Shown here: one piece after another, positions 15,133-57,249 of the stretch
Numbering within the stretch: the stretch's first letter is position 1
Layout of the letters: each line of letters begins with the position of its first letter
Origin: Candidatus Binatia bacterium
GTDB taxonomy: Bacteria; Desulfobacterota; Binatia; UBA1149; CAITLU01
DNA length: 64,000 nucleotides
Direction of reading: 5' to 3'
NCBI GenBank assembly: GCA_047611725.1
Contig: JBLFWR010000002.1
Location: 26,607 to 90,606 of the forward strand
Notes under the pieces: model-generated
Databases searched by the model: none
Told to the model about the DNA's origin: nothing
What the model saw: only the letters and a program-made list of their open reading frames with translations
Made by a program: the position numbers and the translations under genes

Positions 15133-15149
15133 TATAGGACTCCCCAAAA

Positions 15150-20293: not shown

Positions 20294-21478
20294 TCAATTC
20301 AGCTGACGACGTACACGCATCGCGAGTTCTTTAAGCGCAGCGACTATTTCGCTGGCGCGGACGGGGTTCCCGCCCGGGCGGGCAAACGACCCAACACCAG
20401 CGGGCATATCAATGAACATACGAAGCACCCTGTATAGCTGCCCCATATAAGAAGTTTCGACGACCAATCCTGCTTCAACGGTCGCGAAGAACCGACGGTA
20501 GAGACCTTCGTTTATGGGGAACAGAAAACGCGGCACAAGCAACTTGACATTCAACCCTTGTTGCGTTGCACGGCGAAGCGCCTCACGACACACACCGGCG
20601 TTAGATCCCCACGCAATCAGTGCCAGCGGTGCTGTCAATTCACCCTCGATATCGAAGAGATCGTCGCGCTTGCACAGGGGTTCGAACTTGCGAATGCGCT
20701 TCTCAGTCATCAGCGCATGCATACGACCGCTGGACGTAGGGTTGCCGTGTGCGGAGAACACAGCTTGGAATAGATCACTCTGCTCGGCCTTAGTGGGCAT
20801 TCCGGTAGAAGGGCCACCTCGTTGCACGTTGACAATCACCAACGGCAGTTCCGCGATCGTCGCCAGCCCCATGATTTCGGTCTTCAGCGACATGTCGGGA
20901 CCCGACGTCGCGGTCATCGCCTTCTTGCCACCGAACGAGGCGCCAAGCGCTGCCCCAATACTCGCAATTTCGTCTTCGCATTGCAGAACCACGCCGCCGT
21001 AGCCCCAGATCTCGCGCGAGAGAAACTGCATGATCTCGGTTGAGGGCGTAATCGGGTATCCGCCAAAAAAATCACAGCCGGCGAAAATGGCGGCGGCGGC
21101 GCACATCTCGTTTCCATCGACGAGCATTCGCTTTCCAGCCTCAGCGACTGGGTCGATGGTGCGTGGCTGGGCCATAGGATTGGCTTGAGCGAACTCTAGG
21201 CCAGCGGCGAACGCGCGCTCGTTGGCTTCGACCAGCTTCTCTCCCTTCTTGGCGAACCTGGCTGTCAATCCTTTCAAAATCGCGTGTTGGTCGATCCCGA
21301 ACCAACCGGCGATGAGGCCAAGCACGACGGTGTTCTTTGCCTTGTCAGTACTGGCGGTCTTGCGCGCGATTTCTGAAATGGGGACGGGGATTACTTCAAG
21401 CGGAGTGACGCCGGCCAGCGGCAGGGCGTCTGGAGCAATTTTGGAGGCGATGTCATAAACGACAACGGTTTTTCCCCT
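20294..21478 (-). CDS. 2-oxoacid:ferredoxin oxidoreductase alpha subunit-like (KorA/OorA) with partial N-terminal gamma-like domain; possibly 5'-truncated
   Basis: DGNEMCAAAAIFAGCDFFGGYPITPSTEI, MTATSGPDMSLKTEIMGL, domain II WGSNAG; upstream frame open only to 21478 (GKTVVVYDIASKIAPDALPL...), too short for full gamma domain; no korB adjacent. Confidence 0.65.
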   Translation of the reverse strand, partial: RGKTVVVYDIASKIAPDALPLAGVTPLEVIPVPISEIARKTASTDKAKNTVVLGLIAGWFGIDQHAILKGLTARFAKKGEKLVEANERAFAAGLEFAQANPMAQPRTIDPVAEAGKRMLVDGNEMCAAAAIFAGCDFFGGYPITPSTEIMQFLSREIWGYGGVVLQCEDEIASIGAALGASFGGKKAMTATSGPDMSLKTEIMGLATIAELPLVIVNVQRGGPSTGMPTKAEQSDLFQAVFSAHGNPTSSGRMHALMTEKRIRKFEPLCKRDDLFDIEGELTAPLALIAWGSNAGVCREALRRATQQGLNVKLLVPRFLFPINEGLYRRFFATVEAGLVVETSYMGQLYRVLRMFIDMPAGVGSFARPGGNPVRASEIVAALKELAMRVRRQLN

Positions 21479-40227: not shown

Positions 40228-40671
40228 TTGAATGAGTCCGTAACGCCCATCGACTGCATTTTTTGCAAGATCGTGCGCGGCGAAATGCCAGCCCACAAAG
40301 TCTACGAGAATGAACGGATCCTGGTTTTCATGGATATCTTTCCAGTCGCCGATGGGCACACTCTGCTGATCCCCAAAGTCCATGGCTCCAATCTGCTCGA
40401 CACCCCGGTCGAAGATCTCGAGTGTGTCATGGCGCAATCACGTCGCGTCGCACACGCGCTGCGCGACGTTTTCACTCCGGATGGAATCGGGGTGTTTCAG
40501 CTCAACGGCGCAGCTGCCGGGCAAACGGTTTTTCACTACCACATGCATCTTCTTCCGCGCATGAAAGGTGATTCGTTACAGATTCATTCTCGGACTCCGG
40601 GAGATCCGGATCGTCTGGCGGGCAACGCGCAGAAAATCGCTGCAGCACTCGCGTCACTGGAGTCACAATAG
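40228..40671 (+). CDS. HIT-family hydrolase
   Basis: Histidine triad HYHMHLLPR; TTG start with AAGGA RBS (ORF from 40036). Confidence 0.8.
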   Translation: MNESVTPIDCIFCKIVRGEMPAHKVYENERILVFMDIFPVADGHTLLIPKVHGSNLLDTPVEDLECVMAQSRRVAHALRDVFTPDGIGVFQLNGAAAGQTVFHYHMHLLPRMKGDSLQIHSRTPGDPDRLAGNAQKIAAALASLESQ

Positions 40672-40684
40672 GCGACATCTGCAC

Positions 40685-42220
40685 GTGCCCAAACATCACC
40701 ATACGCGCGAGCTTCGAACTTCGCGTTCGTTCGCGGGTTGTTTTGCAATCATAGGATTGGCCTGGGTAGCGCTTTTGGGTCCATGCGTCGCCCTGGCTTC
40801 CGAAAGATCGGAGCGAGAGGCTTCACTCGGGCTCGTTGACTTTCACGCAGCCCGCTACCACGACGCCTTGGCTCGCTTTGAACGGGCGGCAACCGACGAT
40901 AGCGCAGACGCCATGGCGCAATTCCTCGTTGGATCTGCCCTAGCTCGAATGAACCGCTGGGAAGACGCCATCGCAGCCTTCAGCGCTGCCGCGCAGATCG
41001 ACCCAACCATGAACCAGGCCGACCTTGAGATCGGCAACGCCTATTACCGTGTATCCCGATACAAAGCAGCGTTGGCGCCGTTACAGCGAGCGGCCACCAA
41101 GGACGAAACTCGGACTCGCGCCCAACTGTTGCGCGGACGAGTTCTACTTGCGTTAGGCCGCAATGAAGACGCGCGCCAGGACTTTGAAAGGGTTCTGGCG
41201 AGCGGCCCAGACCATGTAGCGAGCGGGCATTTCTACTTGGGTATTCTCGACCTTCACCAGCAACACGCGAGCGCGATCGAGCATTTTCGCGCGGTCCAAA
41301 CTCTGGCTCCGGGAACGGTGCTGGCTAGCCAGGCCGAATCGTATGTGGACGCGTTAACGACCGAACCGCCATCGCCTTGGACAATGCACGGCGCACTGGG
41401 CCTGGAGTACGATAGCAACCCGGGCCTGATCGCGATCACCGGGTTGGCACAGTCAACTCCGCAGCTGGTTGTCAGTGGTGATTTCCGAACTGTACTCGAC
41501 CTGGGCACCGACTATCGGTTGCTAGAAAAAGGTCGCGTTACGGTCGACGCTGGCTACGGTTTTTTTCAAACCATCCACCTCGATCTCAACGAAAACGATC
41601 TCCAGAACCATCGCATCTCGCTAATTGCAGCTGTAGACGAAGGAGAACTGCAATACGGACTCGCGTCGTTCTATGACTTCTATCTTCGCGACAACGACAG
41701 TCTGCTGCACCAAGGCAGCATCCGCCCTTGGGCTGCATTCGCCCGCTCGGGTCTGGGGCGTACTGAAGTCTATTACGAGGGGCGCCTTCGCGGCTACGCG
41801 CAGGACCAGTTCGAACAGCTCGAAGGCGCGAACCACGCGCTTGGTATTGGATGGTCGTTCCTTCCGTTCGGCCCGCGCCTCGCGGTGATTCTTGGATATC
41901 GCTGGGATCGTGAAGATGTCGGAAACGGATCGGACCGACCCTTCGCCTACCAGGGACATCAGGGCGAGTTCCGCGTGCGCGCCCTCCTTGATGCGCGAAC
42001 ACTCGTCGAAGCCGGACTTCAGTATCGCGACGAAAACTACGACGACCCCAGCCAGAATCGCGAAGATACGGAGCACGCATTCGACCTCTCGGTCACGCGC
42101 CAGATTCGCAACTCGATTTGGGTGGTTGCGGCTTACCGCGCTGAACTCAACGATTCGACCGAGTCGCAGTTCGAGTACGACCGACACATTACCACTTTGG
42201 CCTTGGAGATTCGTAAATGA
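40685..42220 (+). CDS. TPR-repeat protein with C-terminal outer-membrane beta-barrel (Slam/DUF560- or YaiO-like architecture)
   Basis: Signal peptide RSFAGCFAIIGLAWVALLGPCVALA, ~4 TPR units, then ~280 aa Y/G/D/R-rich alternating segment; GTG start immediately after HIT stop; ATGA overlap with next gene. Confidence 0.5.
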   Translation: MPKHHHTRELRTSRSFAGCFAIIGLAWVALLGPCVALASERSEREASLGLVDFHAARYHDALARFERAATDDSADAMAQFLVGSALARMNRWEDAIAAFSAAAQIDPTMNQADLEIGNAYYRVSRYKAALAPLQRAATKDETRTRAQLLRGRVLLALGRNEDARQDFERVLASGPDHVASGHFYLGILDLHQQHASAIEHFRAVQTLAPGTVLASQAESYVDALTTEPPSPWTMHGALGLEYDSNPGLIAITGLAQSTPQLVVSGDFRTVLDLGTDYRLLEKGRVTVDAGYGFFQTIHLDLNENDLQNHRISLIAAVDEGELQYGLASFYDFYLRDNDSLLHQGSIRPWAAFARSGLGRTEVYYEGRLRGYAQDQFEQLEGANHALGIGWSFLPFGPRLAVILGYRWDREDVGNGSDRPFAYQGHQGEFRVRALLDARTLVEAGLQYRDENYDDPSQNREDTEHAFDLSVTRQIRNSIWVVAAYRAELNDSTESQFEYDRHITTLALEIRK

Positions 42221-43074
42221 AGCGACTTGCGATCGTTACCTTACTCATCGGCGCGATATTCATCACTTCCGACGCATACGCCGACCAAGTCGTGGGTTCG
42301 GTAACCGGAACCGAAGGCAGCGCCGAGCTTTCTCGAGGCGAAGTATCGAGGCCCGCGCGAATTCAAGACGGCATTCAACCCTTGGATATTGTGCGCACCG
42401 GCCCAAGGGGACGCATCGGGATCGTGTTCCTCGACGAAACCGTTTTGAACCTCGGAAACGCAACAACGCTGGTCGTTGACCAAACCGTGTACGATCCTGA
42501 CGCGCACCAGTCAGTCTTCGAGCTTCTCAAGGGAACCGTGCGCGCACTGGTGTCCGAGCACTACAGCGATCCGCTCGCCCTGTTCCAGATCAAGACACCG
42601 AACTCCGTAACCGGCGTACGCGGAACCGACTTTGTGGTCAGCTATGACGAGAGCACGGGAACCACCGACGTCTCTTGCCTGGGCGGGACCGTCGTTGTTC
42701 ACAGCACCCGCGACCTCGCGAGCAACAGCGCCCATTGTTCCGCAGGTCGATTCACCCGTGTCGCGCCGGGAGAGTTTCCAGCGAAGACAGCGCCCTTGCC
42801 CGCAAGTCGAATCAAAAACTTGAAAAAATCGCTGTCGTTCGTAGGTTCGGGACGTTCTGAGAGTTCGCTTGTCAACGAACCTATTCTCGGTTCAACCGAA
42901 GCGCCGCCTCCCAAGGCAATCGCGCCGCCTCCCCCAAACAGCCCCAGCGCGAAGACAGCACTTGGCGCAACAAAGCCTTCCCTCAAAGCACTATCGGGAA
43001 AGCGCCAAACGCCGGGCAGTCTGATCGGCCAACCTCCCAACGCTGTCCGAAGCTTGGGAACGGACCAGCCCTAG
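42217..43074 (+). CDS. Secreted FecR-domain protein with Pro/Ala-rich C-terminal tail
   Basis: Signal peptide MKRLAIVTLLIGAIFITSDAYA; FecR-like beta-sandwich (IVRTGPRGRIGIVFLDETVLNLGNATTLVV...VRGTDFVV...). Confidence 0.55.
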   Translation: MKRLAIVTLLIGAIFITSDAYADQVVGSVTGTEGSAELSRGEVSRPARIQDGIQPLDIVRTGPRGRIGIVFLDETVLNLGNATTLVVDQTVYDPDAHQSVFELLKGTVRALVSEHYSDPLALFQIKTPNSVTGVRGTDFVVSYDESTGTTDVSCLGGTVVVHSTRDLASNSAHCSAGRFTRVAPGEFPAKTAPLPASRIKNLKKSLSFVGSGRSESSLVNEPILGSTEAPPPKAIAPPPPNSPSAKTALGATKPSLKALSGKRQTPGSLIGQPPNAVRSLGTDQP

Positions 43075-44121: not shown

Positions 44122-45289
44122 ATGGCTTACACGCACTACGACCGCTTGTCGGCGTTGGATTCGACATTCCTCGACATTGAAGATCCGTCCGTCCACATGC
44201 ATGTTGGTGCGGTCGCAATTTTAGAAAAGGATCGCCCGCGTACCGTTGGTGGGACAGCCGGTGTGGGTTGTCGAGGGGCTCGAAGATGGTCGTTTCGCCC
44301 TGATCGTCAAAGCTCACCACTGCATGGTCGATGGCATCGCCGGCATGGATTTACTGACCGCAATTCTTCGGCTGGAACGCGACGATACGAGCATTGATCA
44401 CGAGCGGAAATGGGTGCCGCGTCCACGCCCGAGCGAAACAAGCTTGCTCGCAGGAGAAATCCTGCACCGGGTGTCCTGACCACTGTCGGCAATCCGCGCG
44501 TTGCCGAGTTCACTGCTGAATCCGATCGACACGATCAGCAAAACCGCCGACCAGGTCATGAGCCTCGTTGAAACCCTCAGCGCCGGATTCACGTCGACCA
44601 CCGACACCCCGATCAATGTTGCGATCGGGCCTTACCGTCGCTTCGATTGGGTAAACCTCGCGCTCGAAGATTTTCGGACCATTCATAAGGCGTTCGGCGG
44701 CAGCTTAAACGATGTTTTTTTGGCCACGGTCGCCGGAGCAGTCGGTGATTTTCTTCGTCGCCGAGGCGAAGTCGCCAATGCCGAGACAATGTTCCGTGTC
44801 ATGGTTCCGGTCAGTGTTCGCTCGGGCGACGAGCACGGCATGCCTGGAAATCGCGTCGTGAACTTTCTGGCGCGCCTGCCTATTGACGCAACCGACCCCG
44901 TCTCGCGACTCCAACGCACCACCGAGATCACACGAGAGCTCAAGGGCTCACGTATGACTCAGGGCGCAGAGTTAAAGGAGGAACTGAGCGACCACAGCCT
45001 TACCACACTGTTGGTTGAATTCGTCAAGTTGGGTGCGAAGGCACGAGCCTACAACATGGTTGTGACCAATGTTCCCGGACCACCAGTACCGATCTACTTT
45101 CTTGGCGCACAGATGGAAGAAATCTATCCGTTGGTCGCGCTGTTTAGCTACAACGATCGACTGAGTTGGGGATTCAACGCCGACTGGGAGGCGATGCCCG
45201 ACCTCCATGACTTCGTGGGTTTGGTCGAGGAAGAGTTCGAACGCCTACTGGCCTGCGCTCAGCGCGCAGCTTCCGAATCGACCGGGTAG
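44122..45289 (+). pseudogene. Disrupted wax-ester synthase/diacylglycerol acyltransferase (WS/DGAT) gene: ~55-60 codon internal deletion + frameshift near 44235, in-frame TGA at 44477-44479
   Basis: N-term MAYTHYDRLSALDSTFLDIEDPSVHMHVGAVAILEK in one frame; PVWVVEGLEDGRFALIVKAHHCMVDGIAG (active-site HHxxxDG) in +1 frame only ~9 codons later; C-terminal 262 aa after TGA. Confidence 0.7.
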
Positions 45290-45306: not shown

Positions 45307-45516
45307 TCAGACGCCTTTCTTAGCCTGCGCTGTGATAGCGCGTTCATGGCGCAGCCGACGCGACAGCGCGATGACAGCCAGCAACAGACCTAGCCCCAGC
45401 AGGGGATGCCCGACAAACGAGAACACGATGGCTGCCGCGCCGTCCATAACGAGGCTGGTATAGGCGAGAATCGCCATCGCCACGAAAATCAACAACGCTG
45501 CTAGGCGCGCAATCAT
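45307..45516 (-). CDS. Small 2-TM membrane protein, last gene of cytochrome operon (tentative)
   Basis: MIARLAALLIFVAMAILAYTSLVMDGAAAIVFSFVGHPLLGLGLLLAVIALSRRLRH; overlaps stop of upstream gene. Confidence 0.3.
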   Translation of the reverse strand: MIARLAALLIFVAMAILAYTSLVMDGAAAIVFSFVGHPLLGLGLLLAVIALSRRLRHERAITAQAKKGV

Positions 45517-46166
45517 TTGGAAGCCTCCCATGCAGCCGCACCGATCAACGCATCGTCGGGGTGGGCTGAAAGGTGGCAGACGCCAGCGCAACTAAGCTCC
45601 CCCGAAATTAGAGCCTCCTGAATGTCGGGATCTTGATGTGACTCTTCGTTGCGAAACGGTGCCGCCTCAGCGTGGCAGTCAAGACAGGCCTTGATGTCGA
45701 AGGTGTGCGAGATCTCAAGCGGATACTCGTAGTCCCCGGTCACCGTGTGAATCATGTGATTCACGCCGGCCTTTTTTGCGTCAACGTCTCCCCATATCCC
45801 GTAGCCGCTGTGACAGACGTAACACGCTTCTTCGTGCGATATTGCGCCGCGACTCCAGTGGAGTCCGGCCAGTGACTCGGTGTCGTTCTTAAGTGCGTCA
45901 ACCAAGGGGCTCATTGTCTCATGACAGGAGCCGCAAAAGGATACGCGCTTGGATTCTTCGAGCACGTGCAGGTCACCCAGCAGATAGCCGACAGCCGGGA
46001 GCAGCAGAAAGACATACGAACTGAACACCGCCGGAAGGCGCCCGCGCACCATCACAACGATCGATGTCGCCATCACCACCAGCGCGATGGACACCGTCAG
46101 GATCCAAAAATGATCCGGCGAGTGTGGTCGTTCGAACAGTGGTCCGAGCCCGTCAAGAGTCTCCAT
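45513..46166 (-). CDS. NapC/NirT/CymA-like membrane-anchored tetraheme cytochrome c (quinol dehydrogenase candidate)
   Basis: N-terminal TM helix; heme motifs CGSCH, CYVCH, CLDCH plus atypical CAGVCH. Confidence 0.7.
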   Translation of the reverse strand: METLDGLGPLFERPHSPDHFWILTVSIALVVMATSIVVMVRGRLPAVFSSYVFLLLPAVGYLLGDLHVLEESKRVSFCGSCHETMSPLVDALKNDTESLAGLHWSRGAISHEEACYVCHSGYGIWGDVDAKKAGVNHMIHTVTGDYEYPLEISHTFDIKACLDCHAEAAPFRNEESHQDPDIQEALISGELSCAGVCHLSAHPDDALIGAAAWEASK

Positions 46167-46247
46167 CGAGGTTCTTCCTTATCGCCTCACGGCGGCCTTA
46201 CAGATGCTGGCGAATCACCCTTACCTAGAAATCAGAAGCCGCCGAAG

Positions 46248-46670
46248 CTATTCGGCGGCTGGCACTGCTGGCACAGCGTCGTCTGCAGCGCCCTCTACTG
46301 GAGCGGCAACGGTTCCGGAGAACGCGAAGACGAAATCAGTCAGGGCCTCGATCTCTTCGTCCGAAAGTTTTGACGCGAACGGCTTCATCACCTTCTTGCC
46401 TTTCGCGTTGGCGATCCCGGCTTTCGTGCCTTCGATCATGCGGTCGCGATCAAAATTGGCCACTATTTCTGGATCGGTCAGATCGGAAACCTTCAGGAGC
46501 TTGCCAACCTTCGTGTCGGCCTTTCCATCGGCACCATGACAGGAGGCGCAGTTCTTGGTCCAAAGCGCAGCAGTGTCGATCTCGGCGTTGGCAGGCGTAG
46601 CCGTCAACGAAGAGACAAGAAAGGCTCCGACAGCGAAGTAGGCGATTAGGAAAGGGGCTCGGTGTTTCAT
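46248..46670 (-). CDS. Monoheme class I cytochrome c, periplasmic
   Basis: Signal peptide MKHRAPFLIAYFAVGAFLVSSLTATPANA, single CASCHG, distal Met region. Confidence 0.75.
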   Translation of the reverse strand: MKHRAPFLIAYFAVGAFLVSSLTATPANAEIDTAALWTKNCASCHGADGKADTKVGKLLKVSDLTDPEIVANFDRDRMIEGTKAGIANAKGKKVMKPFASKLSDEEIEALTDFVFAFSGTVAAPVEGAADDAVPAVPAAE

Positions 46671-46671
46671 G

Positions 46672-48828
46672 TTAGAATCCGTACTCAAGGCTGGTTTGCA
46701 GGATACTGGCTTGGTAGTCATTGCGCCCTCCAAACGTTTCGTCCTGGCTGTCAATAAATCCATAGCGGGCACGTAGCAGAATGTTTTCTTGCACGCGGTG
46801 TGCCAAACCGACGGTCACACGATGCTCTTCAAGATTCGAACCGTACCCCAACGAAACCGGAGACAGGTCATCGTAGTTGTCAGAGAACAGCCCGTTGTAG
46901 AGAAACTCGACATCGGTGTGCTCGCTTAGCGCCTTGCCTGCTGCCAGTCGAGCATTCCAGAAATCGTTGTCGAAGTCGGCGACAAGGCCTCCCGCGGCAC
47001 CGGTAAGATCGGAGACCGGCGTCTGTGTTTCACTCCACACACGACCAACTTCTCCCTGAATCCAACCATTGGCGATCGGGCTCAGCGTGGCCGTGACGCT
47101 GGCGTGATGCGTGTCGATTCGGGCGGTCTCGATCACTGCGAGCTCGGCCTTGCCGGTGTCACGTTCGGTGATGCGGAAGTTGTAGTTCGCCCCCAACCTC
47201 AAGAAAGAAGTCGGTCGTAGACTCCCCTTCAAGTACCAACGATGGGTCTTCACATCCTGCGAACTAATGTAGGCGGGGTATCGGTTCAGACTGCCACTGG
47301 TCACCGTCGTGCCGGGATCGTTGCTGGTGCTATCCACCCGATCATCAAAATCTTCGTCGCTTTTACGATAGCTGTAGCCAGCCGAAAGATTCCCCCTCGT
47401 GCTCGGGTACCAGCGTAGGCGAAGTCCGTATTGTTGCGCGAAACCATCGGTGTCGGTGCGGTGAGCCAGCTCTGGCGTAAGCGCAGCCCCAGCCAAGACC
47501 TCTTCGGTCACGTCACGATCACTTTCCTCAAACTCAGCACGAACTGACAACGACAGCGTCTCGATTCCCGTGTAGCGAAGCTCTAGAACCTGAGTGAAAA
47601 TCGTTTCGTCAGCGCTGCTCGAAATTCCAACTCCCTCGGTTTCAGTGGGCAAACCTAAAGCCGACGACACTAACGTATCGGTGAAAGCGGAAGTTCCATC
47701 AGCCTCTTCTGCTTTCAGGCGTGCCTGAACAAGAATTCGGAGATCTTCGACAGGGGTCGCAGAAACGTTAAACGCCGCCGAATGGTGCTCTACATCAACG
47801 TTCGTATCCAAATCGAGGAACCCGCGATCAAACGACTGGCGATTCGCCGATGCAGCATCGAAGACTGGATTCACGCTCGCTCCGTAGATCCGGCTGCCAC
47901 CACCGTCGCTGTCCAAATCCGAGTAAGCGTACATCGCCGAAACAATGACCGCGTCGTCGGCCATCCGGTGTTCGCCGAAACCACGAAGGGTGAGCGAGTC
48001 GTTTCGCACTTCGTCACGCTGGCTGACCCAACGCATACGACCGGCCTCTCCGGGGCGACGTTGTGTACCCCTAGTGTTGTTGATTTCGCTGGTTTCGTAG
48101 CGCGCGCCGCCACCGACCATCGTTACATCGTTGAAGCGGTGACGAATGTCAGCCTCGACCGTGTGGACCCGCTCGTCGATATCCGAAACCGCCGGACCGA
48201 TATTTTTAACACCTGAACTCCCGCCAAACGCAGCAGTGTTGACATCACCCCGAACGAGCGAAGCACGCGATCCGTCGCGGTAACGATAACGATAGCCAAC
48301 CGTCAACTCGGGAACGTTTGGGCGACGCAAACCTGCTCGAAACCAGGCATTTCCTCTTTCCAAGTATGCCTCATCGCCACCTTCGGTGGGAAGGAAAAGC
48401 CCGCCGTCACCCGGGAAAAAGTTACCCGTCCGATCTTGCCAAGTTCGATACTGCTTATAGCCAGCTTCAAGAAACCCGCGCTCGGGAAGCTCCAGCTTGA
48501 ACGAACCCAAGTAGTCGCCCGCATCGATGATCGCGCGGCCATCGAAAGAAAGCGTGCCGTCGTCACCCCAGGCACGTTCGATCTCGACGCTCTGGATACC
48601 ACCAGAGACATCGTTCGGAATTCCAACTCGTCGTTGAAACGCCGCGTCGTCATCGCTAACGGAAGCATGATCAACGGAAGCATGGTCAACGGAAGCATGG
48701 TTAGCTTGAAGCACGATGCGACCAGTCGGCTGATCATCGGCGGCAGCTGTGGTGGGAACGCCAAACAGGACGGCCCCGGCACCCAATGCCGCAAATGCGA
48801 TCGTCGTAGAAATAGTTAACGCACGCAT
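46672..48828 (-). CDS. Large outer-membrane beta-barrel protein, MtrB/PioB-like porin partner of multiheme cytochrome
   Basis: Signal peptide MRALTISTTIAFAALGAGAVLFGVPTTAAA; 700+ aa rich in alternating Y/R/D/G/S/T strands; terminates ...LEYGF (C-terminal Phe); start coupled to cytochrome stop (SD GGAGG overlaps). Confidence 0.6.
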   Translation of the reverse strand: MRALTISTTIAFAALGAGAVLFGVPTTAAADDQPTGRIVLQANHASVDHASVDHASVSDDDAAFQRRVGIPNDVSGGIQSVEIERAWGDDGTLSFDGRAIIDAGDYLGSFKLELPERGFLEAGYKQYRTWQDRTGNFFPGDGGLFLPTEGGDEAYLERGNAWFRAGLRRPNVPELTVGYRYRYRDGSRASLVRGDVNTAAFGGSSGVKNIGPAVSDIDERVHTVEADIRHRFNDVTMVGGGARYETSEINNTRGTQRRPGEAGRMRWVSQRDEVRNDSLTLRGFGEHRMADDAVIVSAMYAYSDLDSDGGGSRIYGASVNPVFDAASANRQSFDRGFLDLDTNVDVEHHSAAFNVSATPVEDLRILVQARLKAEEADGTSAFTDTLVSSALGLPTETEGVGISSSADETIFTQVLELRYTGIETLSLSVRAEFEESDRDVTEEVLAGAALTPELAHRTDTDGFAQQYGLRLRWYPSTRGNLSAGYSYRKSDEDFDDRVDSTSNDPGTTVTSGSLNRYPAYISSQDVKTHRWYLKGSLRPTSFLRLGANYNFRITERDTGKAELAVIETARIDTHHASVTATLSPIANGWIQGEVGRVWSETQTPVSDLTGAAGGLVADFDNDFWNARLAAGKALSEHTDVEFLYNGLFSDNYDDLSPVSLGYGSNLEEHRVTVGLAHRVQENILLRARYGFIDSQDETFGGRNDYQASILQTSLEYGF
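48657..48701 (-). repeat. 15-bp tandem repeat x3 encoding (HASVD)3 near N-terminus of outer-membrane barrel protein
   Basis: AACGGAAGCATGRTY x3 on plus strand. Confidence 0.6.
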
Positions 48829-48841
48829 TCTCATCCCCTCC

Positions 48842-49663
48842 TCAGAAGCGCAGCGACGAGCTGACTTGCGAGCCGTGCACGGCCTCGTGACACCCAGCGC
48901 TGAAGCAAGTCCCCTGACTGAGGAACAAGCTATGGTCTTGTCCGCCGATTTCCACGACACCGGGCCGTGGTTGTTCTTGGGTGTGACACTTCAAACACAC
49001 CGTAGCGTTGCTCTCGGTCAGCATCGCCTCATTCAAAGCACCGTGGGCGGCGTGGCAGGTGGTACAACCCTCACGCATCGCCTCGTGCACGAATACAAAC
49101 GGACCTCGTTGAGCGGTATGGCACTCGGTGCACCCCTGGTTCATCTCGTCGCCAGGCTCGACACGAAACGCTACCGATGACCCGGTATGCGGATCGTGGC
49201 AGTCGTTGCACGCCATTCGTGCAGGGCGCATCCCCAGCGGACCAACCGAAACCGGATGGCTATATGGAAGCGAGAAATGACCACGCACATTGGTGTGACA
49301 ACCGTAGCAGGTCTCCGGATTGTCCTCGGGGTTCACGATCAGCGCCGCCTCGCCTCCGGACTCGCCGTGTAAACTACCGGGGCCATGGCAGGACTCGCAT
49401 CCCAGTGTGTCGGCCGCCGGGCCCTTGACGCTTAAGAGAGCATGGGTCGCGTCATGGAAGTCCCGAGCGATGTCCTCGTGACAGACAGCGCATGTCTCGG
49501 TGCCCACAAACTCGGCACCAGGCTCGCCCACCGGCGTCACAAGAGGACCCGTGGTTGGGCTCGTACAGCCGGAGACCCCACCGAGCGTCGAACATGCGAA
49601 TATAAGTGTGAATGCGAGTGCCCGGCTCCAGCCGAGTTCTTGCCGTCGATTACGCAGACCCAT
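48842..49663 (-). CDS. Octaheme c-type cytochrome, periplasmic lipoprotein (MtrA/OmaB-like conduit component)
   Basis: Lipoprotein-type signal (…TLGGVSGC); CxxCH x7 (CAVCH, CESCH, CYGCH, CNDCH, CTECH, CTTCH, CLKCH) + atypical CFSAGCH; GGGGGAG RBS before ATG 49663. Confidence 0.8.
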   Translation of the reverse strand: MGLRNRRQELGWSRALAFTLIFACSTLGGVSGCTSPTTGPLVTPVGEPGAEFVGTETCAVCHEDIARDFHDATHALLSVKGPAADTLGCESCHGPGSLHGESGGEAALIVNPEDNPETCYGCHTNVRGHFSLPYSHPVSVGPLGMRPARMACNDCHDPHTGSSVAFRVEPGDEMNQGCTECHTAQRGPFVFVHEAMREGCTTCHAAHGALNEAMLTESNATVCLKCHTQEQPRPGVVEIGGQDHSLFLSQGTCFSAGCHEAVHGSQVSSSLRF

Positions 49664-50152
49664 TTTCAAATCTCCCCCCATCACGCTCCAGAACGGAACA
49701 CCCATCAGTGTAACACAGCGCTCTCATCAAGTTCATCCTGTTCGCCCTGTTCAAGACTCACGGCCTGTTAAAGTTCGCGCGGAGGAAAAGAGGAAATAAA
49801 TTCAGCGCGATTCCACAAGTACGTATCCAAGCTTGGTGCCAGTCCGGCGTTTGGCTTCGGTCCGCCTCGTCCTAACGGTGAGCACGGTAGATTCAACAGT
49901 ACTTGAGCGACATTTCGTCGCGCAGAATTCCCGCCGATGCGAATTCCTCTTCACTCTTGGGAAAAGTAGTCGACACGAAGCACAACAAGCCGAACTCGAC
50001 CCAAGTCTCATGCGATGCCTGCAGCAGTTTTGTTGGCGCAGGCGTTGCATGTCTTCCGCTGGCAGACTAATTCAAGTGCGAATGCTGTCGTATCGACGGC
50101 GATCAGTAACGGACGAAGTTCGTTCAGAGCTTTGGGGGGTCAGGGCTTCAGC

Positions 50153-51868
50153 ATGCGAAATTCCAGAGGAAGCAAATTTAATTTTGGCGGGATCTTGGCC
50201 GCGTGCCTTGTGTCGGTTATCGCACTCGGCTGCGACGGTGACGACAACACCACGGTTATCAACGAGACCGACTTGCCGATAGCGGTTGCCGCCGACGCGG
50301 CGACAATAACAACCGGCAACCAGATTCAGGTCAGCGCCACCGCCGGTGGTGGTGGCGATGCCGGTATTAGCGGATCGCTATCCTACGAATGGTTTGCCGC
50401 TGGCGGTCGCTTCACGAACGCGAACGCCGCCGAAACAGGCTGGACTGCGCCCGACGAAACCGGAGTTTTCACTGTCTCGGTTTTGATCAGCGACGGTGTA
50501 CGCGCGGGCATCGGTTCGGTTAACATCACGGTCGATCAATACGAACCGACGGTTGAGCCTCATTACGTAGGCGCCGTTGTCTGCTCGGGTTGCCACGCCA
50601 GCGACGAGATTGCCGGTGATCAGTTCAACCCCTGGAGCCAAAGCGACCATGGCGACGCTCTCGCGACCCTCGATGACATCGGCCAAGGGGAGAATGGTTT
50701 CTGTGTCGGGTGTCATACGGTCGGCACCTACGGGATTTTGGCCGACGAGGATCTCGACAACGGCGGCTACGACGATACCGCCGTACCGCGGTTGGCGAAT
50801 GTGCAGTGTGAAAACTGCCACGGCCCGGGTAGCGAGCACCCCACGACCAACTTCACGTCGGTGCAGGTCAGCATGGATCCGTCGATCTGCGGCGATTGTC
50901 ACAACGGAACGCATCACCCTACGTTTGATGAATGGTCCGATTCGCTCCACGCAGTTCCGATCGGATTCGCCGCAGGCCGCAACACTTGCGCTAAATGTCA
51001 CAACGGCATCGAAGCGGTGCGCTACCTCGACGATCCGCTTAACTATGTGGCGCCATCCGCGAATCCGACGGAAATCGTCGGCCAGGTTTGCGCGACCTGC
51101 CACGATCCGCACGGCAACGACAACCCTAGTCAGCTTCGCAACGCATCTGTCACCGATGTCGTTCTTCCAAACTCGGTTATCGTCGAAGAAGCCGGTGCCG
51201 GACGCCTGTGCATGTCGTGCCACAACGGTCGTCGCCAAGACTTCGACGTCTTAGAACAGATTGACGAAGGCTCTGGCCACTTCGGGCCGCACCATTCGGT
51301 GCAGGGCGACATGCTCAAAGGGGTTAACGCCTACGAGGAGCTCGCGCCTGGCTTCAGCTTCGTTTCAAGCAAGCACTTGCTGATCGGCGACGGTTGCGTG
51401 AATTGCCACACCGCAGCTTTTGATGTCGACACGGTCGGTGGCATCGAACACTTCACAGGACACACCTTCAGGCCTCACGTCGAAGCCTGTCAGGACTGTC
51501 ACGGCAACGTCGAAGAATTCGAAGACATTGGCGCGAAGCAGGACTTTGATGGCGACGGTGTGATCGAAGGCGTTCAAGATGAAGTTCGTGGTCTCGCCGA
51601 CAACCTGCGAGAAGCAATCATCGATGCCAGCACGAGCCCCGAGGCGCGGCAGGCGCTGCTCGACGACTTCGAAGGCGCGGTTGGCAACATCACAATCAGC
51701 ACGCGCAAGCAGCGTGAAGCGGCGTACAATCTGTTCTTTGTTGAATTCGATGGATCCAGCGGCGTCCACAACGCCAACTACGCGATCCAGCTTTTGCAGC
51801 AGAGCATTCTGTACATTGATGAATCGGGCATGCCCGCCGGTGCCCAGCTGCTAGTCGCCGCAGACTGA
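50153..51868 (+). CDS. Nonaheme c-type cytochrome lipoprotein with N-terminal Ig/PKD-like domain (MtrC/OmcB-like outer-surface candidate)
   Basis: Signal + lipobox FGGILAACLVSVIALGC; CxxCH x9 (CSGCH, CVGCH, CENCH, CGDCH, CAKCH, CATCH, CMSCH, CVNCH, CQDCH). Confidence 0.8.
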   Translation: MRNSRGSKFNFGGILAACLVSVIALGCDGDDNTTVINETDLPIAVAADAATITTGNQIQVSATAGGGGDAGISGSLSYEWFAAGGRFTNANAAETGWTAPDETGVFTVSVLISDGVRAGIGSVNITVDQYEPTVEPHYVGAVVCSGCHASDEIAGDQFNPWSQSDHGDALATLDDIGQGENGFCVGCHTVGTYGILADEDLDNGGYDDTAVPRLANVQCENCHGPGSEHPTTNFTSVQVSMDPSICGDCHNGTHHPTFDEWSDSLHAVPIGFAAGRNTCAKCHNGIEAVRYLDDPLNYVAPSANPTEIVGQVCATCHDPHGNDNPSQLRNASVTDVVLPNSVIVEEAGAGRLCMSCHNGRRQDFDVLEQIDEGSGHFGPHHSVQGDMLKGVNAYEELAPGFSFVSSKHLLIGDGCVNCHTAAFDVDTVGGIEHFTGHTFRPHVEACQDCHGNVEEFEDIGAKQDFDGDGVIEGVQDEVRGLADNLREAIIDASTSPEARQALLDDFEGAVGNITISTRKQREAAYNLFFVEFDGSSGVHNANYAIQLLQQSILYIDESGMPAGAQLLVAAD

Positions 51869-53562: not shown

Positions 53563-56500
53563 ATGAACAGTGGCCACGCCGTCACGATCGACGGCAATGA
53601 AGCCGCGGCCTCAGTCGCGTACCGAACCAGTGAAGTGATTGCGATTTACCCGATCACCCCCGCATCGACAATGGGAGAACTCGCCGACGATTGGTCGGCG
53701 CATGGCCGCAGTAATATTTGGGGCGGGACACCCGACGTCATCGAGATGCAATCTGAAGGTGGCGCCGCCGGCGCCGTTCACGGCGCGCTTCAAGCCGGCG
53801 CCTTGACCACCACCTTCACGGCCTCGCAGGGCCTGCTGTTAATGATCCCCAACATGTACAAGGTCGCTGGCGAGCTCACACCGTTTTGCATGCACGTGGC
53901 AGCGCGAACTTTGGCGACCCACGCGCTGTCGATCTTCGGAGATCATTCCGACGTAATGGCCTGCCGTCAGACCGGCTTCGCCATGCTTGCTTCCGCGTCG
54001 CCGCAGGAAGCCCAAGACATGGCGTGCATCGCCACGATGGCCACCTTGCGCTCGCGGATTCCGTTCCTCCATTTTTTCGACGGCTTTAGAACCTCACACC
54101 AAATCGACACGCTAACGACTCTGTCCGACGACGACTTGCGCGCTTTGATCGATCATGAAGCGATTGATGCCCATCGCGCCCGCGCCCTGACCCCCGACAA
54201 TCCGGTTTTGCGTGGCACCGCGCAAAACCCAGACGTGTTTTTTCAAGCGCGCGAGGCGATCAACCCGTACTACGAGGCCTGCACACGCGAAGTCATCGAC
54301 GCGATGGATGCCTTCGGCGCAAGAACGGGCCGGCATTACTCTCCTTTCGAGTACATTGGCGATCCAAACGCAGAACGCGTCATCGTGATCATGGGCTCGG
54401 GAGCGGAAACCGTCCAAGCAACCGTAGAGTGGCTGGCCGAACGCAACGAACGCGTCGGAGTTCTACGCGTTCGTCTCTTCCGCCCGTTCTCCTGTGAACT
54501 GATGCTCGCCGCATTGCCGGATACCGTTAAGACAATAGCGGTGATGGATCGCACCAAGGAGCCTGGTTCAGCAGGTGAACCGCTGTACCAGGATATCGTC
54601 ACCGCACTGTGGGAGCGGAGCCAAAACCCTGACCGCGCCGCACAAGAACAAGGCAAACGATCCAGGGTAGAGCCCATGGTTATCGGCGGACGCTACGGGC
54701 TTTCATCCAAAGAGTTCACCCCAGCGATGGTCGCCGCCGTGTACAAGGAACTGGCAGCCGAGCGACCTCGCACGCGATTCACCGTTGGTATTGTTGACGA
54801 CGTTACCCACCTGTCGCTGACCGTTGACGCCGAATTCGAGATCGAAGAGCCCGAAGTTATGCGCACCGTGGTTTACGGACTTGGGTCTGACGGAACGGTG
54901 GGCGCCAATAAGAGTTCGATCAAACTGATCGGTGAAGAAACCGACAACTACGCCCAGGGCTACTTCGTCTACGATTCGAAGAAAGCAGGGGCAGTCACAA
55001 TTTCGCACCTTCGCTTCGGCCCCAATCCATTTCGGGCCCCTTACCTGATTCGAAAAGCGAGCTTCGTAGCCTGCCATCAGTATTCGTTTCTCGAACAGTT
55101 CGATGTCCTTGAATTGGCCGAACCTGGCGCAGTGTTTCTGCTCAACGCTCCCTATGACCCCGACGCGGTATGGGATCGGCTGCCAAGAGAAGTACAGGAC
55201 ACAATTGTCGAAAAGCGCCTTCGCTTCTATGTGATCGATGCCTACGCGCTGGCCCGCGAAGCTGGAGTCGGGCCGCGCATCAATACGATCATGCAGACCT
55301 GCTTTTTCGAGATTTCCGGGATTCTCGGCGCTGTTGACCCCGTTGCAAGAATCAAAAAGTCGGTCGAGGCCAACTATGGCAAGAAGGGGCCCGAGATTTT
55401 GCGGCGCAACTTTGCGGCGATTGAACAGACGTTACCTCGGCTACACGAGGTTACCGTCCCCACTGCCGCGACCGCCACGCACTACCGGCCCCCCATTGTC
55501 GCGCCGGAAGCACCGGATTTTGTGCAACGTGTAACGGCGGTCATTCTCGCCAATCGCGGAGACTACCTGCCGGTCAGCGCTTTTCCGGTAGATGGAACGT
55601 GGCCTCTGGGAACAAGCAAGTGGGAGAAACGAAATCTTGCGGCGGAAATTCCCGTCTGGGATACGGCGATTTGTATCCAATGCAACAAGTGCGTTCTGGT
55701 GTGTCCCCATGCAGCGATTCGCGCCAAGGTCTATCCGGACGCAGAACAGTCGGCACCTGCTACATTTAAGTCGACCCCGTATCGCGGACGAGAGTTACCC
55801 GATCACACCTACTCTCTTCAGGTCGCCCCCGAAGACTGCACCGGCTGTTCACTGTGCGTCGAAGTTTGTCCCGCCAAGGACAAGGCCAACCCACGCCACA
55901 AAGCGATCGACATGGTCTCTCAGCCGCAGCTTCGTGAGTCCGAACGAGACAACTACGACTACTTCCTTTCGATACCCGAAATTGATCGCACAACGATGCG
56001 CATCGATCTCAAAAGCTCACAGTTTCTCGAGCCGTTGTTCGAGTACTCCGGTGCCTGTGCGGGTTGCGGTGAAACTCCATACCTAAAGTTACTCACCCAG
56101 CTGTTCGGCGACCGTGCGTTGATCGCCAACGCTACCGGTTGTTCTTCCATCTACGGTGGGAACTTACCGACTACGCCCTACACCGTTAACACCGAAGGGC
56201 GCGGTCCCGCGTGGTCGAATTCTTTGTTCGAAGACAACGCCGAGTTCGGACTTGGGATGCGCTTGGCGGTGGACTATCAGCGAGAGCTCGCCCGCGCGGC
56301 AGTATCAACCCTGGCTACGCAGCTCGGTGAACCGCTCGTCACCGAAACACTGACTGCCGACATGACACACGAAGCTGGCATCGCACGGCAACGGGAACGC
56401 GTTAGTGCCATTCGAAAAAAGCTCAACGGACTTACAGCCGGAACGGGCCTGAGCACAGAAGAAACAGCCGCAGTAGGCGTCCTGCGAACCTGCGCCGACC

Positions 56501-57249
56501 AGTTGGTCAAGAAAAGCGTATGGCTTGTGGGTGGCGATGGCTGGGCCTACGACATCGGTTTCGGTGGTCTCGACCACGTTCTTTCCACCGGCCGTGACGT
56601 CAACATTCTTGTGTTAGACACCGAGGTCTACTCGAATACCGGAGGGCAACAATCGAAGGCGACTCCGATGGCGGCGTCTGCCAAGTTCGCTGTAGCCGGG
56701 AAAGAGTCGAGCAAGAAAGACCTGGGACTGATCGCGATGAGTTACGGCAACGCCTACGTTGCCCGCGTTGCGTTCGGAGCCAAGGATCAGCAAACCGTAA
56801 GAGCGTTCCAAGAGGCCGAGGCCTACCCGGGCCCGTCACTGATCATTGCCTACTCGCATTGCATCGCACACGGCTACGATCTTGCGCAGGGAGCGCGCCA
56901 GCAAAAACTCGCCGTAGACTCTGGTGTTTGGCCGCTCTACCGATTCGACCCGTTGCGCCGAGAAAATGGCGACCCTCCCCTGCATTTGGATTGCCCTCCG
57001 CCCAAGATTCGCGCGACCGAGTATATGCGCGGCGAAGCCCGCTTCCGCATTGCCGAGAAAGTGGATCCGAAACGCTTCAAGAGATTGATCGCGACCGCGT
57101 CGCAACAGGCGACGGAACGCTACGCGCTGTATCAGCAACTCGCTGGGATCACGGTCAACCATGCTGACAACCATGCGGACAAGCATACGGGCGACGCATC
57201 ACCTACGGAGAAAGCCCACGCGCCTACCTCCACATCAAAAAAGGATTGA
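53563..57249 (+). CDS. Pyruvate:ferredoxin (flavodoxin) oxidoreductase, single-chain PFOR/NifJ type
   Basis: 1228 aa; domains I-VII including ferredoxin-like CIQCNKCVLVCPHAAIR / CTGCSLCVEVCP and TPP-binding GDGW. Confidence 0.9.
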   Translation: MNSGHAVTIDGNEAAASVAYRTSEVIAIYPITPASTMGELADDWSAHGRSNIWGGTPDVIEMQSEGGAAGAVHGALQAGALTTTFTASQGLLLMIPNMYKVAGELTPFCMHVAARTLATHALSIFGDHSDVMACRQTGFAMLASASPQEAQDMACIATMATLRSRIPFLHFFDGFRTSHQIDTLTTLSDDDLRALIDHEAIDAHRARALTPDNPVLRGTAQNPDVFFQAREAINPYYEACTREVIDAMDAFGARTGRHYSPFEYIGDPNAERVIVIMGSGAETVQATVEWLAERNERVGVLRVRLFRPFSCELMLAALPDTVKTIAVMDRTKEPGSAGEPLYQDIVTALWERSQNPDRAAQEQGKRSRVEPMVIGGRYGLSSKEFTPAMVAAVYKELAAERPRTRFTVGIVDDVTHLSLTVDAEFEIEEPEVMRTVVYGLGSDGTVGANKSSIKLIGEETDNYAQGYFVYDSKKAGAVTISHLRFGPNPFRAPYLIRKASFVACHQYSFLEQFDVLELAEPGAVFLLNAPYDPDAVWDRLPREVQDTIVEKRLRFYVIDAYALAREAGVGPRINTIMQTCFFEISGILGAVDPVARIKKSVEANYGKKGPEILRRNFAAIEQTLPRLHEVTVPTAATATHYRPPIVAPEAPDFVQRVTAVILANRGDYLPVSAFPVDGTWPLGTSKWEKRNLAAEIPVWDTAICIQCNKCVLVCPHAAIRAKVYPDAEQSAPATFKSTPYRGRELPDHTYSLQVAPEDCTGCSLCVEVCPAKDKANPRHKAIDMVSQPQLRESERDNYDYFLSIPEIDRTTMRIDLKSSQFLEPLFEYSGACAGCGETPYLKLLTQLFGDRALIANATGCSSIYGGNLPTTPYTVNTEGRGPAWSNSLFEDNAEFGLGMRLAVDYQRELARAAVSTLATQLGEPLVTETLTADMTHEAGIARQRERVSAIRKKLNGLTAGTGLSTEETAAVGVLRTCADQLVKKSVWLVGGDGWAYDIGFGGLDHVLSTGRDVNILVLDTEVYSNTGGQQSKATPMAASAKFAVAGKESSKKDLGLIAMSYGNAYVARVAFGAKDQQTVRAFQEAEAYPGPSLIIAYSHCIAHGYDLAQGARQQKLAVDSGVWPLYRFDPLRRENGDPPLHLDCPPPKIRATEYMRGEARFRIAEKVDPKRFKRLIATASQQATERYALYQQLAGITVNHADNHADKHTGDASPTEKAHAPTSTSKKD

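Follow-up and report, generated by a model that had tools for sequence, protein, structure and literature searches.

The question raised by this locus is whether a compact group of cytochrome genes around one outer-membrane barrel gene could form a complete electron route between the quinone pool and the cell exterior, and in which direction electrons would run. Within the window (the whole 64-kb stretch of DNA that was analysed), the interval 45307–51868 holds six genes: four cytochromes, a barrel protein and a 69-aa protein with two transmembrane helices that was absent from the gene list of the preliminary description (Table 1). That description counted five cytochrome genes with 22–24 heme-binding motifs; we found a total of 22 motifs (8 + 1 + 4 + 9), but over four cytochrome genes accompanying the barrel gene. 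Canonical CxxCH motifs number 20 in the four cytochrome ORFs (6.5 kb) versus 5 across the six reading frames of the other 57.5 kb, a density that exceeds chance.

Table 1 Features of the cytochrome-barrel locus, in window coordinates.
Feature	Coordinates	Strand	Details
69-aa two-TM protein	45307..45516	-	Translationally coupled: start codon shared with the end of the tetraheme gene (ATGA overlap); also called by public gene callers
Membrane-anchored tetraheme cytochrome, 217 aa	45513..46166	-	Two predicted N-terminal TM helices; 3 CxxCH + CAGVCH (CX3CH)
Terminator-like hairpin	46237..46260	-	10-bp stem (7 GC pairs), then T-rich tail; overlaps the monoheme stop codon
Periplasmic monoheme class I cytochrome c, 140 aa with signal peptide	46248..46670	-	CASCH; Pfam Cytochrom_C, Cytochrome_CBB3
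Outer-membrane 26-strand beta-barrel (predicted), MtrB-like, 720 aa with signal peptide	46672..48834	-	Start MRMRAL; C-terminus EYGF
15-nt tandem repeat, 2.9 copies, encoding (HASVD)3	48658..48701	-	TRF; N-terminal region of the barrel protein
Octaheme lipoprotein cytochrome, 273 aa	48842..49663	-	7 CxxCH + C253-FSAG-CH (CX4CH); lipobox-like VSGC
Divergent intergenic region, 489 nt	49664..50152	.	Separates the octaheme operon from the nonaheme gene; from gene coordinates
Nonaheme lipoprotein cytochrome, 571 aa	50153..51868	+	Nine CxxCH; lipobox IALGC; likely start 50153 (MRNSRG...IALGC)

On balance we think it probable that the cluster is a complete Mtr-type conduit from the quinone pool to the cell exterior. 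The inner-membrane NapC/NirT-like tetraheme cytochrome, perhaps with the 69-aa protein, would exchange electrons with quinol; the soluble His/Met monoheme cytochrome would ferry them over the periplasm; the lipid-anchored octaheme cytochrome, lying inside the MtrB-like barrel, would be the wire through the outer membrane; and the OcwA-like nonaheme lipoprotein would pass them at the surface to an extracellular acceptor, e.g., Fe(III)/Mn(IV) oxides or humic/particulate organic matter. We infer that outward, respiratory flow is modestly favoured over inward flow.

The octaheme cytochrome, judged by its profile matches, is an MtrA/DmsE homolog minus two central hemes, in line with its first description as the periplasmic cytochrome of a conduit. 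It matched MtrA (6r2q_A) with an E value of 1.5e-22 as a single sequence and of 6.2e-42 as a family profile, and the DmsE/MtrA and GSU2203 models match all 40 family members scanned, with TIGR03508 scoring 145 bits on the window protein (below the 192.2 cut-off). Its hemes 1–4 align to MtrA hemes 1–4 and its hemes 3–8 to MtrA hemes 5–10. The last heme site, CX4CH, is invariant in a 40-sequence alignment, and nearly all of 70 N-termini inspected show a lipobox Cys (62/75 by a strict regular expression). We take the N-terminus of MtrA in 6R2Q to be periplasmic, with heme 10 facing out, so an N-terminal lipid anchor on the octaheme cytochrome would sit in the inner leaflet of the outer membrane. 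Eight hemes versus ten count against the conduit reading, as they bear on the putative reach of this protein across the membrane.

Gene linkage of the parts across phyla is very strong. With the barrel as the only bait, an octaheme gene lies directly upstream in 49/49 informative loci from several phyla; together with the MtrA homology and the MtrB-like predicted barrel, this adjacency bears out the porin-cytochrome conduit originally proposed. A monoheme gene follows in 47 of the 55 informative loci and a further cytochrome in 25/57, with a NapC-domain match in both examples scanned. When the nonaheme protein alone served as bait, the order nonaheme-octaheme-barrel, like mtrC-mtrA-mtrB, was found in 21 of 80 loci, and five more have nonaheme and octaheme genes without a detected barrel, mostly at a contig end. 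Members of the cluster family occur widely in Verrucomicrobiota and in further phyla; the barrel-based scan recovers mainly Verrucomicrobiota (Limisphaerales, Opitutus, Akkermansiaceae), among them a MAG that carries the label Opitutus sp. GAS368, a taxon on published cluster lists (He 2017 / Fiorito 2026). The nonaheme gene is divergent in the window and missing from most Verrucomicrobial loci, which counts against the conduit reading.

The minus-strand genes had been described as coupled from 49663 down to 45307. This holds for octaheme-barrel-monoheme, where the barrel Shine-Dalgarno sequence GGAGG overlaps the octaheme stop codon and the reported 1-nt gap separates the barrel stop from the monoheme gene; the hairpin at the monoheme stop is strong, so the tetraheme and small genes may form a separate or attenuated transcription unit. 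Terminator-like sites in the region total no more than chance, so the function of the hairpin is read from its position only. Promoters for the nonaheme gene and the octaheme operon presumably lie in the divergent region between them, which may be regulatory; neither a sigma-70 consensus nor an FNR-like site was found in it, and a 14-nt inverted repeat occurs at 50009–50051. No ccm or type II secretion genes were found within the 64-kb window, which counts against the conduit reading.

At the inner membrane, the tetraheme cytochrome is a putative, divergent NapC/NirT/NrfH-type quinol dehydrogenase. It scores 19.2 bits with PF03264 (below GA 24.1) and 19.6 bits with NrfH. A tetraheme homolog from Binatia locus L004, matching the window protein at E 3e-24, clears the PF03264 threshold with 43.7 bits, which upholds the NapC-like assignment made earlier. 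The CX3CH site does not occur in this homolog, the nearest with that gene. The 69-aa protein may be the membrane partner of this cytochrome; a two-TM ORF also follows the L004 homolog, with similarity so weak (phmmer E 0.083) that homology is not established.

The monoheme cytochrome, which may act as the periplasmic shuttle, has its best PDB matches among c-552/c553/c6 types, with no match to MtoD in the PDB search. Of 66 homologs, 98% retain its Met95, and His/Met ligation of the heme is predicted. Conserved His/Met monoheme cytochromes c are usually of high potential and are commoner in Fe(II)-oxidising pathways than in Shewanella or Geobacter reducers. The His/Met type counts against an outward-respiratory conduit.

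The same conduit could be run inwards, for electron uptake or for oxidation of Fe(II) or reduced humics like MtoAB-MtoD-CymA, with the monoheme cytochrome passing electrons to a terminal oxidase and the NapC-like tetraheme feeding the quinone pool by reverse flow. The retention of the monoheme gene, its axial Met and the high potential usual for class I cytochromes of this type are all consistent with such operation, as are the four component types found in the Sideroxydans mto cluster (MtoA, MtoB, monoheme MtoD, tetraheme CymA) and the reversibility of CymA-type enzymes known from the literature. However, the monoheme cytochrome is no MtoD homolog, since MtoD is bis-His, and the Mto/Pio systems in the literature are without an extracellular cytochrome, whereas the present cluster family recurrently has an OcwA-like one. 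Verrucomicrobial relatives also carry an ImcH-like cytochrome (three TM helices plus a NapC domain), and the literature reports homologs of ImcH from Fe(III) reducers only. We consider inward operation possible but rather unlikely, and prefer the outward respiratory conduit.

The nonaheme cytochrome at the proposed outer end is, on its own profile matches, an OcwA/NrfA-superfamily protein unlike MtrC. In the PDB search it matched OcwA (6I5B) with an E value of 3.8e-6 as a single sequence and of 1.7e-49 as a family profile, collinear over near full length, and the family profile matched the C. ferrireducens surface cytochrome 6QVM at 7e-48. The longest ORF begins at 50015. An N-terminal beta-rich (Ig/PKD-like) region, the nine CxxCH motifs and a C-terminal helical region, together with the lipobox, fit the divergent 9-heme lipoprotein with an Ig-like N-domain of the preliminary description. 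OcwA is the characterised surface terminal reductase of Thermincola, and the nonaheme protein is a putative terminal cytochrome on the cell surface. The residue at +2 after its lipobox Cys is Asp, which counts against surface placement; Asp at this position signals inner-membrane retention in E. coli.

That residue, and the divergent position of the gene relative to the conduit operon, would also suit a periplasmic NrfA/ONR-like reductase (of nitrite, hydroxylamine or a sulfur oxyanion) served by the NrfH-like tetraheme and a mere neighbour of the octaheme-barrel module. The family profile does match NrfA, MccA and octaheme nitrite reductases (E 1e-14 to 1e-19), OcwA itself reduces nitrite and hydroxylamine according to the literature, and NrfH is the best NCBIfam match of the tetraheme. 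Yet the CxxCK catalytic motif is absent, all nine sites being CxxCH, and OcwA and the C. ferrireducens cytochrome match 30 orders of magnitude better than NrfA. Moreover, nonaheme genes are linked to octaheme and barrel genes and not to the tetraheme, and the 62% relative L001 keeps the nonaheme gene without a tetraheme. Such a reductase appears improbable, and we retain the nonaheme protein as the candidate outer end of the Mtr-type conduit.

The barrel protein is 720 aa from MRMRAL; the 762 aa given previously is the maximal ORF, and the EYGF ending is correct. Where 26–28 strands had been expected and at least 20 thought necessary, the predicted fold has 26. Its best structural match is MtrB, aligned over 558 residues versus ~420 for transporters. 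By sequence, the family profile gave no match to MtrB, PF11854 was matched by only 3 of 42 family members, and the window barrel is only marginally within PF11854, so the relationship rests mainly on the predicted fold. One lineage is 62% identical and all other relatives at most about 42%. The HASVD repeat is not in the 62%-identical homolog P0002 and is an insertion specific to this lineage for which no role is evident; barrel residues 48–56 have pLDDT < 50. This repeat and the CX3CH and CX4CH sites had been put forward as novelties, and all are real, the first two being lineage-specific and the third family-wide. An ordinary large porin or transporter, with periplasmic redox cytochromes that do not cross the outer membrane, is a very improbable reading given 26 strands versus 22 in TonB-dependent transporters, no plug or TonB-box domain, the longer alignment to MtrB and the MtrA homolog adjoining the barrel at every informative locus.

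Among known systems, MtrCAB of Shewanella (6R2Q) and MtoAB/PioAB share with the window a 26-strand barrel and a cytochrome gene immediately upstream of the barrel gene, and many relatives share with MtrCAB the surface cytochrome gene ahead of these. MtrA has ten hemes and is soluble, whereas the window octaheme has eight, is a predicted lipoprotein and ends in a CX4CH site; the surface cytochrome lies outside the MtrC/OmcA family. OcwA (Thermincola potens) and 6QVM share with the nonaheme cytochrome nine CxxCH, a collinear heme core plus C-terminal helical region, and a common NrfA/c554/MccA superfamily. OcwA, however, is a Gram-positive cell-wall protein without a barrel partner, and the window cytochrome is a lipoprotein of a Gram-negative cell that has an additional beta-rich domain at its N-terminus.

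The mto locus of Sideroxydans lithotrophicus ES-1 likewise joins a monoheme class I cytochrome and a NapC/NirT-type membrane tetraheme to a porin-cytochrome pair. The bis-His MtoD differs from the His/Met, c552/c553-like window monoheme, and the window tetraheme differs from CymA of ES-1 in its two predicted TM helices, CX3CH site and sub-threshold Pfam score. The likeness drawn earlier to mtoA-mtoB-mtoD-cymA extends to the component set but not to gene order, as the ES-1 locus tags place mtoD before mtoA and not after mtoB. A closer affinity to Geobacter OmaB/OmcB had heme counts as its sole basis (OmaB of OmbB-OmaB-OmcB is an octaheme as well in the literature) and is not borne out by the MtrA/DmsE and OcwA/NrfA sequence assignments. 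The window octaheme scores 145 bits with GSU2203 (NF041028, a decaheme model), far below the curated cut-off of 325, and barrel residues 374–628 match GSU2204 (NF041027) at 41 bits, far below 350.

He et al. 2017 (PMC5615132) already gave a computational description of the cluster family, with Verrucomicrobia clusters that combine a porin with an 8-heme cytochrome in the periplasm and a multiheme cytochrome outside the cell. The Fiorito et al. 2026 preprint very probably did so too, with Mtr-like EET2–EET4 clusters of MtrA-like and OcwA-like cytochromes in peat Acidobacteriota/Verrucomicrobiota; in situ transcription of related clusters in peat is reported there. The suggestion of an undescribed variant is thus withdrawn. 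These clusters and the window have in common a porin with 20 or more strands next to a periplasmic cytochrome whose eight heme sites are conserved, sometimes joined by an extracellular multiheme cytochrome, the cytochromes being likened in the published descriptions to MtrA-like and OcwA-like models. They differ in that the host of the window carries the label Hyphomicrobiaceae, the window nonaheme gene is divergent, its barrel is distant from all but the one close lineage, and a short NapC-like tetraheme and the 69-aa protein stand where relatives carry an ImcH-like ~500-aa cytochrome or NrfCD-type genes.

Six genes within 45307–51868 of the window make up the cluster, as read from the sequence and its ORFs. 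The preliminary description of this cluster was confirmed with small corrections: it had counted five cytochrome genes with 22–24 motifs, and by tallying CxxCH motifs and ORFs we found the 22 heme sites to be carried by four cytochromes. Canonical CxxCH motifs number 20 in these four ORFs versus only 5 in the other 57.5 kb across six frames. A 69-aa ORF missing from that description is also called by public gene callers, and the public NCBI record (proteins MFT4569353-59; also JGI 3300054976) annotates the cluster proteins as hypothetical or 'CXXCH cytochrome family'. The octaheme and barrel genes are co-oriented with a gap of 7 nt, the GGAGG Shine-Dalgarno sequence of the barrel gene lying across the stop codon of the octaheme. 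Exactly at the monoheme stop codon stands a strong hairpin (46260-46237) followed by a T-rich tail, which may set the tetraheme gene and the small gene after it apart or attenuate their transcription. In the divergent intergenic region, neither a sigma-70 consensus nor an FNR-like site was found; an inverted repeat, located about 100 nt before the start codon of the nonaheme gene, might act as an operator or form an RNA hairpin.

Features of the conduit cluster and of the surrounding window (window coordinates)
Feature	Position	Strand	Description
Octaheme cytochrome	49663-48842	minus	273 aa; seven CxxCH + C-FSAG-CH
SLRF end of octaheme	48842-48853		conserved family C-terminus
Barrel protein	48834-46672	minus	720 aa from MRMRAL; C-terminus EYGF
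Monoheme cytochrome c	46670-46248	minus	start 1 nt past barrel stop
Membrane-anchored tetraheme	46166-45513	minus	three CxxCH + CAGVCH; 81-nt gap after monoheme
69-aa two-TM ORF	45516-45307	minus	ATG overlapping tetraheme stop codon
Inverted repeat	50009-50051		14 nt, 86% complementary, 15-nt spacer
Nonaheme lipoprotein	50153 (likely start) to 51868	plus, divergent	nine CxxCH
SulP-family sulfate permease	3200-5443	plus	fused to beta-class carbonic anhydrase domain; 747-aa ORF
2-oxoacid:ferredoxin oxidoreductase alpha-like gene	20294-21325	minus	second, shorter
TPR-repeat protein	40568-42220	plus	C-terminal beta-barrel-like region
FecR-domain protein	42217-43074	plus	4-nt overlap with TPR-repeat gene
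WS/DGAT, first piece	44122-44397	plus	91 aa, N-terminal
WS/DGAT, second piece	44501-45289	plus	262 aa, catalytic-domain end and C-terminal domain
Pyruvate:ferredoxin oxidoreductase	53563-57249	plus	full-length

The octaheme cytochrome matched MtrA of the solved Mtr complex with E 1.5e-22 as a single sequence and E 6.2e-42 as a 40-member family profile. Hemes 1–4 of the family align with MtrA hemes 1–4 and family hemes 3–8 with MtrA hemes 5–10, a pattern indicating that the octaheme, whose sequence homology to MtrA is clear, is an MtrA homolog in which two central hemes are missing. The DmsE/MtrA and GSU2203 decaheme models matched all 40 of the family members; the window octaheme, with its eight heme sites, scored 145 bits, which falls short of the curated cut-offs for GSU2203 (325) and for TIGR03508 (DmsE/MtrA; 192.2), and is thus not a decaheme DmsE/MtrA by the latter. 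The last heme of the family has a CX4CH motif (C-[FWY]-[ST]-[AGST]-G-C-H) with invariant Cys and His columns in the 40-sequence alignment, and corresponds there to MtrA heme 10, which is outward-facing. A lipobox Cys about 25 residues before heme 1 is seen in nearly all of 70 listed N-termini (62 of 75 by a strict regular expression) and predicts a conserved lipid anchor; MtrA is not known to be a lipoprotein. At its other end the family closes on a conserved SLRF, with Leu and Arg at least 90% conserved and the terminal Phe the majority residue in the octaheme family alignment A5. Outer-membrane proteins have a similar C-terminal signature, and this end may be relevant to barrel docking or assembly. 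The names given for 6R2Q in the local PDB table that was searched are misleading, with chain A (MtrA) appearing as 'Cystathionine beta-synthase' and chain B (MtrB) as 'Uncharacterized protein', and could hide an MtrA/MtrB match from a casual reader.

For the barrel protein, the match to Pfam MtrB_PioB (PF11854) was marginal and partial, at 25.6–26 bits (GA 23) over only ~93 residues; the same model matched 3 of 42 barrel-family members, the NCBIfam Geobacter GSU2204 family was matched weakly, and PDB sequence searches with the single barrel sequence and with the family profile returned no matches, MtrB included. An AlphaFold2 model built from a 97-sequence alignment reached a pLDDT of 90.8 and a pTM of 0.86, and 26 long antiparallel strands could be counted in it. 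The model thereby passes the preliminary description's own refutation test, which asked for 20 or more strands. MtrB also has 26 strands, and the barrel as modelled has a 26-strand MtrB-like fold. A 15-nt tandem repeat of 2.9 copies, encoding (HASVD)3, falls within a low-confidence N-terminal segment of the model and is absent from a 62%-identical homolog; because it is neither conserved nor well modelled, we rejected it as a functional feature.

As a single sequence, the nonaheme lipoprotein gave a weak match (E 3.8e-6) to 6I5B, the structure of OcwA, a terminal reductase with nine hemes on the cell surface of Thermincola potens. A 68-member family profile matched OcwA with E 1.7e-49 and 172 bits in three collinear stretches spanning residues 12–498, followed by the surface cytochrome of C. 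ferrireducens (6QVM; E 7e-48), NrfA and MccA (E about 1e-19), and MtrC (E 1e-7, 33.7 bits). These scores point to an OcwA-like rather than an MtrC-like protein, that is, a predicted member of the NrfA/c554/MccA superfamily with nine CxxCH motifs, collinear with OcwA including the C-terminal helices. Membership in the MtrC/OmcA family was rejected on the difference between 33.7 and 172 bits and on TIGR03507, the surface decaheme MtrC/OmcA model, which did not match the nonaheme; PF22113 matched with 53 bits over one heme-rich stretch only. The sole localisation signal seen is a lipobox, IALGC, and a cell-surface position and a terminal reductase activity are putative. A single-sequence AlphaFold2 model of the nonaheme had a pLDDT of 33.6 and was discarded.

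The linkage of these genes was followed in relatives from two baits. By using the barrel alone to scan GTDB species representatives, we obtained 57 loci, mostly from Verrucomicrobiota (Limisphaerales, Akkermansiaceae, Opitutaceae), the closest of which carry the labels Binatia, Gemmatimonadota and Myxococcales. An octaheme with 7+1 motifs lies directly upstream of the barrel in all 49 informative loci, a monoheme lies downstream in 47 of 55, and 25 of 57 have a protein that weakly matches the tetraheme of the window. By using the nonaheme alone to scan metagenomes, we obtained 80 loci; in 21 of these, one or two nonaheme genes stand directly upstream of octaheme and barrel on the same strand, and 5 further loci, mostly located at the end of a contig, have nonaheme and octaheme but no detected barrel. 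The order nonaheme-octaheme-barrel in these relatives mirrors mtrC-mtrA-mtrB. Word-indexed barrel searches with the single sequence, a 4-sequence profile and a 97-sequence profile had found only four proteins, and the extreme rarity of the family that this would imply was rejected as an artefact of search sensitivity, since an exhaustive HMMER search gave 1,094 clusters (50% identity) of the barrel family and the genome scan gave its 57 loci. In two MAG contigs the barrel gene is in two or three ORFs (L047 9788-11940 and L055 8830-11087), which may reflect frameshifts or pseudogenes.

The monoheme is a class I cytochrome of the c-552/c553 type, with c-552/c553 proteins as its best PDB matches and an axial Met conserved in 98% of 66 homologs. 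It was rejected as an MtoD homolog because MtoD is bis-His and the monoheme is His/Met; no MtoD name occurs among its 20 PDB matches at E <= 0.01. The window tetraheme, with four heme sites of which one is CX3CH, scored 19.2 bits against NapC/NirT (PF03264), below the GA of 24.1; its homolog in the Binatia locus L004 (E 3e-24) passes with 43.7 bits and the Verrucomicrobial version scores 44.6 bits. That version, a protein of ~500 aa, is found downstream of barrel and monoheme in L022 (7528-9042) and about 24 other Verrucomicrobial loci. The L022 protein, which was scanned as the example, combines three TM helices with a NapC/NirT domain and 6+1 heme sites, a predicted ImcH-like architecture in place of the short tetraheme of the window. 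A distant relative, L002, has a different quinone-coupling module at 13229-16283, consisting of a 4Fe-4S ferredoxin-type (NrfC-type) protein and then an NrfD-family membrane protein that carries a fused cNMP-binding domain. A candidate counterpart of the 69-aa protein, the only one found, follows the tetraheme homolog in L004, but its similarity is not significant (phmmer E 0.083).

The best reading of the cluster is a complete Mtr-type pathway, in which electrons would pass from a NapC-like quinol dehydrogenase in the inner membrane to a monoheme shuttle in the periplasm, then along a lipid-anchored octaheme within the 26-strand barrel, whose lumen it presumably threads, to an OcwA-like nonaheme at the surface and finally to an acceptor outside the cell. 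The Mto-like component set and the His/Met monoheme would suggest inward electron flow through the same conduit. The surface reductase homolog, together with the ImcH-like partners found in relatives, would favour outward flow. If functional, this Mtr-type conduit would let an uncultured lineage respire on, or take electrons from, extracellular solids and humic matter. The barrel relatives comprise ~1,100 clusters at 50% identity, in Verrucomicrobiota and in phyla labelled Binatia, Gemmatimonadota and Myxococcales, and given this wide spread the family could have a large share in the redox cycling of iron, manganese and organic matter. The MtrA homology with its two-heme deletion, the lipid anchor and CX4CH terminal heme of the octaheme, the OcwA homology of the surface partner and the near-obligatory monoheme gene are targets for expression and structure work.

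Genes around the cluster are unrelated to it and encode a sulfatase, an Na/Pi transporter, an SDR, a split wax-ester synthase/DGAT (WS/DGAT), a kinase and a pyruvate:ferredoxin oxidoreductase (PFOR). A scan of 30 other large ORFs of the window, out of roughly 35–40 candidates, showed no ccm and no type II secretion genes. The cluster is even in base composition throughout and so bears no compositional sign of recent horizontal transfer. The two pieces of the WS/DGAT suggest a frameshift, a pseudogene or an assembly error. The TPR-repeat protein gave weak BBP2_2 and PEP-CTERM-associated OMP matches in its C-terminal region; its gene and that for the FecR-domain protein lie 2 kb from the conduit cluster, and no link between this pair and the cluster was found. 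The window also has a SulP-family permease fusion, and its two ferredoxin oxidoreductase genes are a hint of life under anaerobic or microaerobic conditions.

In a broader and rather unlikely reading, the family would form a third major class of Gram-negative outer-membrane conduit, in which an MtrA-like wire of eight hemes, lipid-anchored and with a conserved, outward-facing CX4CH heme, sits in an MtrB-like barrel and is coupled to a His/Met monoheme as dedicated shuttle and, at the surface, to a cytochrome of the OcwA type known from Gram-positives. The version in the window would then be deep-branching and non-Verrucomicrobial, and its inner-membrane module would be its own: a NapC-like CX3CH tetraheme and 69-aa partner that could be a previously unrecognised two-subunit quinol dehydrogenase.

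Among known systems, a Geobacter Pcc-like (OmbB-OmaB-OmcB) reading was rejected, as its basis was heme counts alone and the sole feature common with the window is a heme count of eight. The preliminary description, whose interpretation is partly supported, had also suggested a possible undescribed variant, a suggestion superseded by two published accounts of this kind of cluster. A preprint (Fiorito et al. 2026) describes four syntenic EET clusters from Acidobacteriota and Verrucomicrobiota of peat, with MtrA-like and OcwA-like cytochromes of 8–13 hemes, AF3 multimer models and in-situ transcription. 'Novel' Verrucomicrobia clusters, carried by Opitutus sp. GAS368 among others, have been described in which a porin with 20 or more strands is found with a periplasmic cytochrome bearing eight conserved heme sites, in some cases together with an extracellular multiheme cytochrome (He et al. 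2017, PMC5615132). Therefore, the conduit kind is known already, from genomics alone. The window architecture fits the published description of these porin-multiheme clusters, and relatives were found in taxa named there: L037, for instance, is a MAG under the label Opitutus sp. GAS368, and many others are lake Verrucomicrobia. These clusters were stated not to be homologous to Mtr (He et al. 2017), whereas here the octaheme is clearly MtrA-homologous and the barrel, as modelled, shares the MtrB fold.
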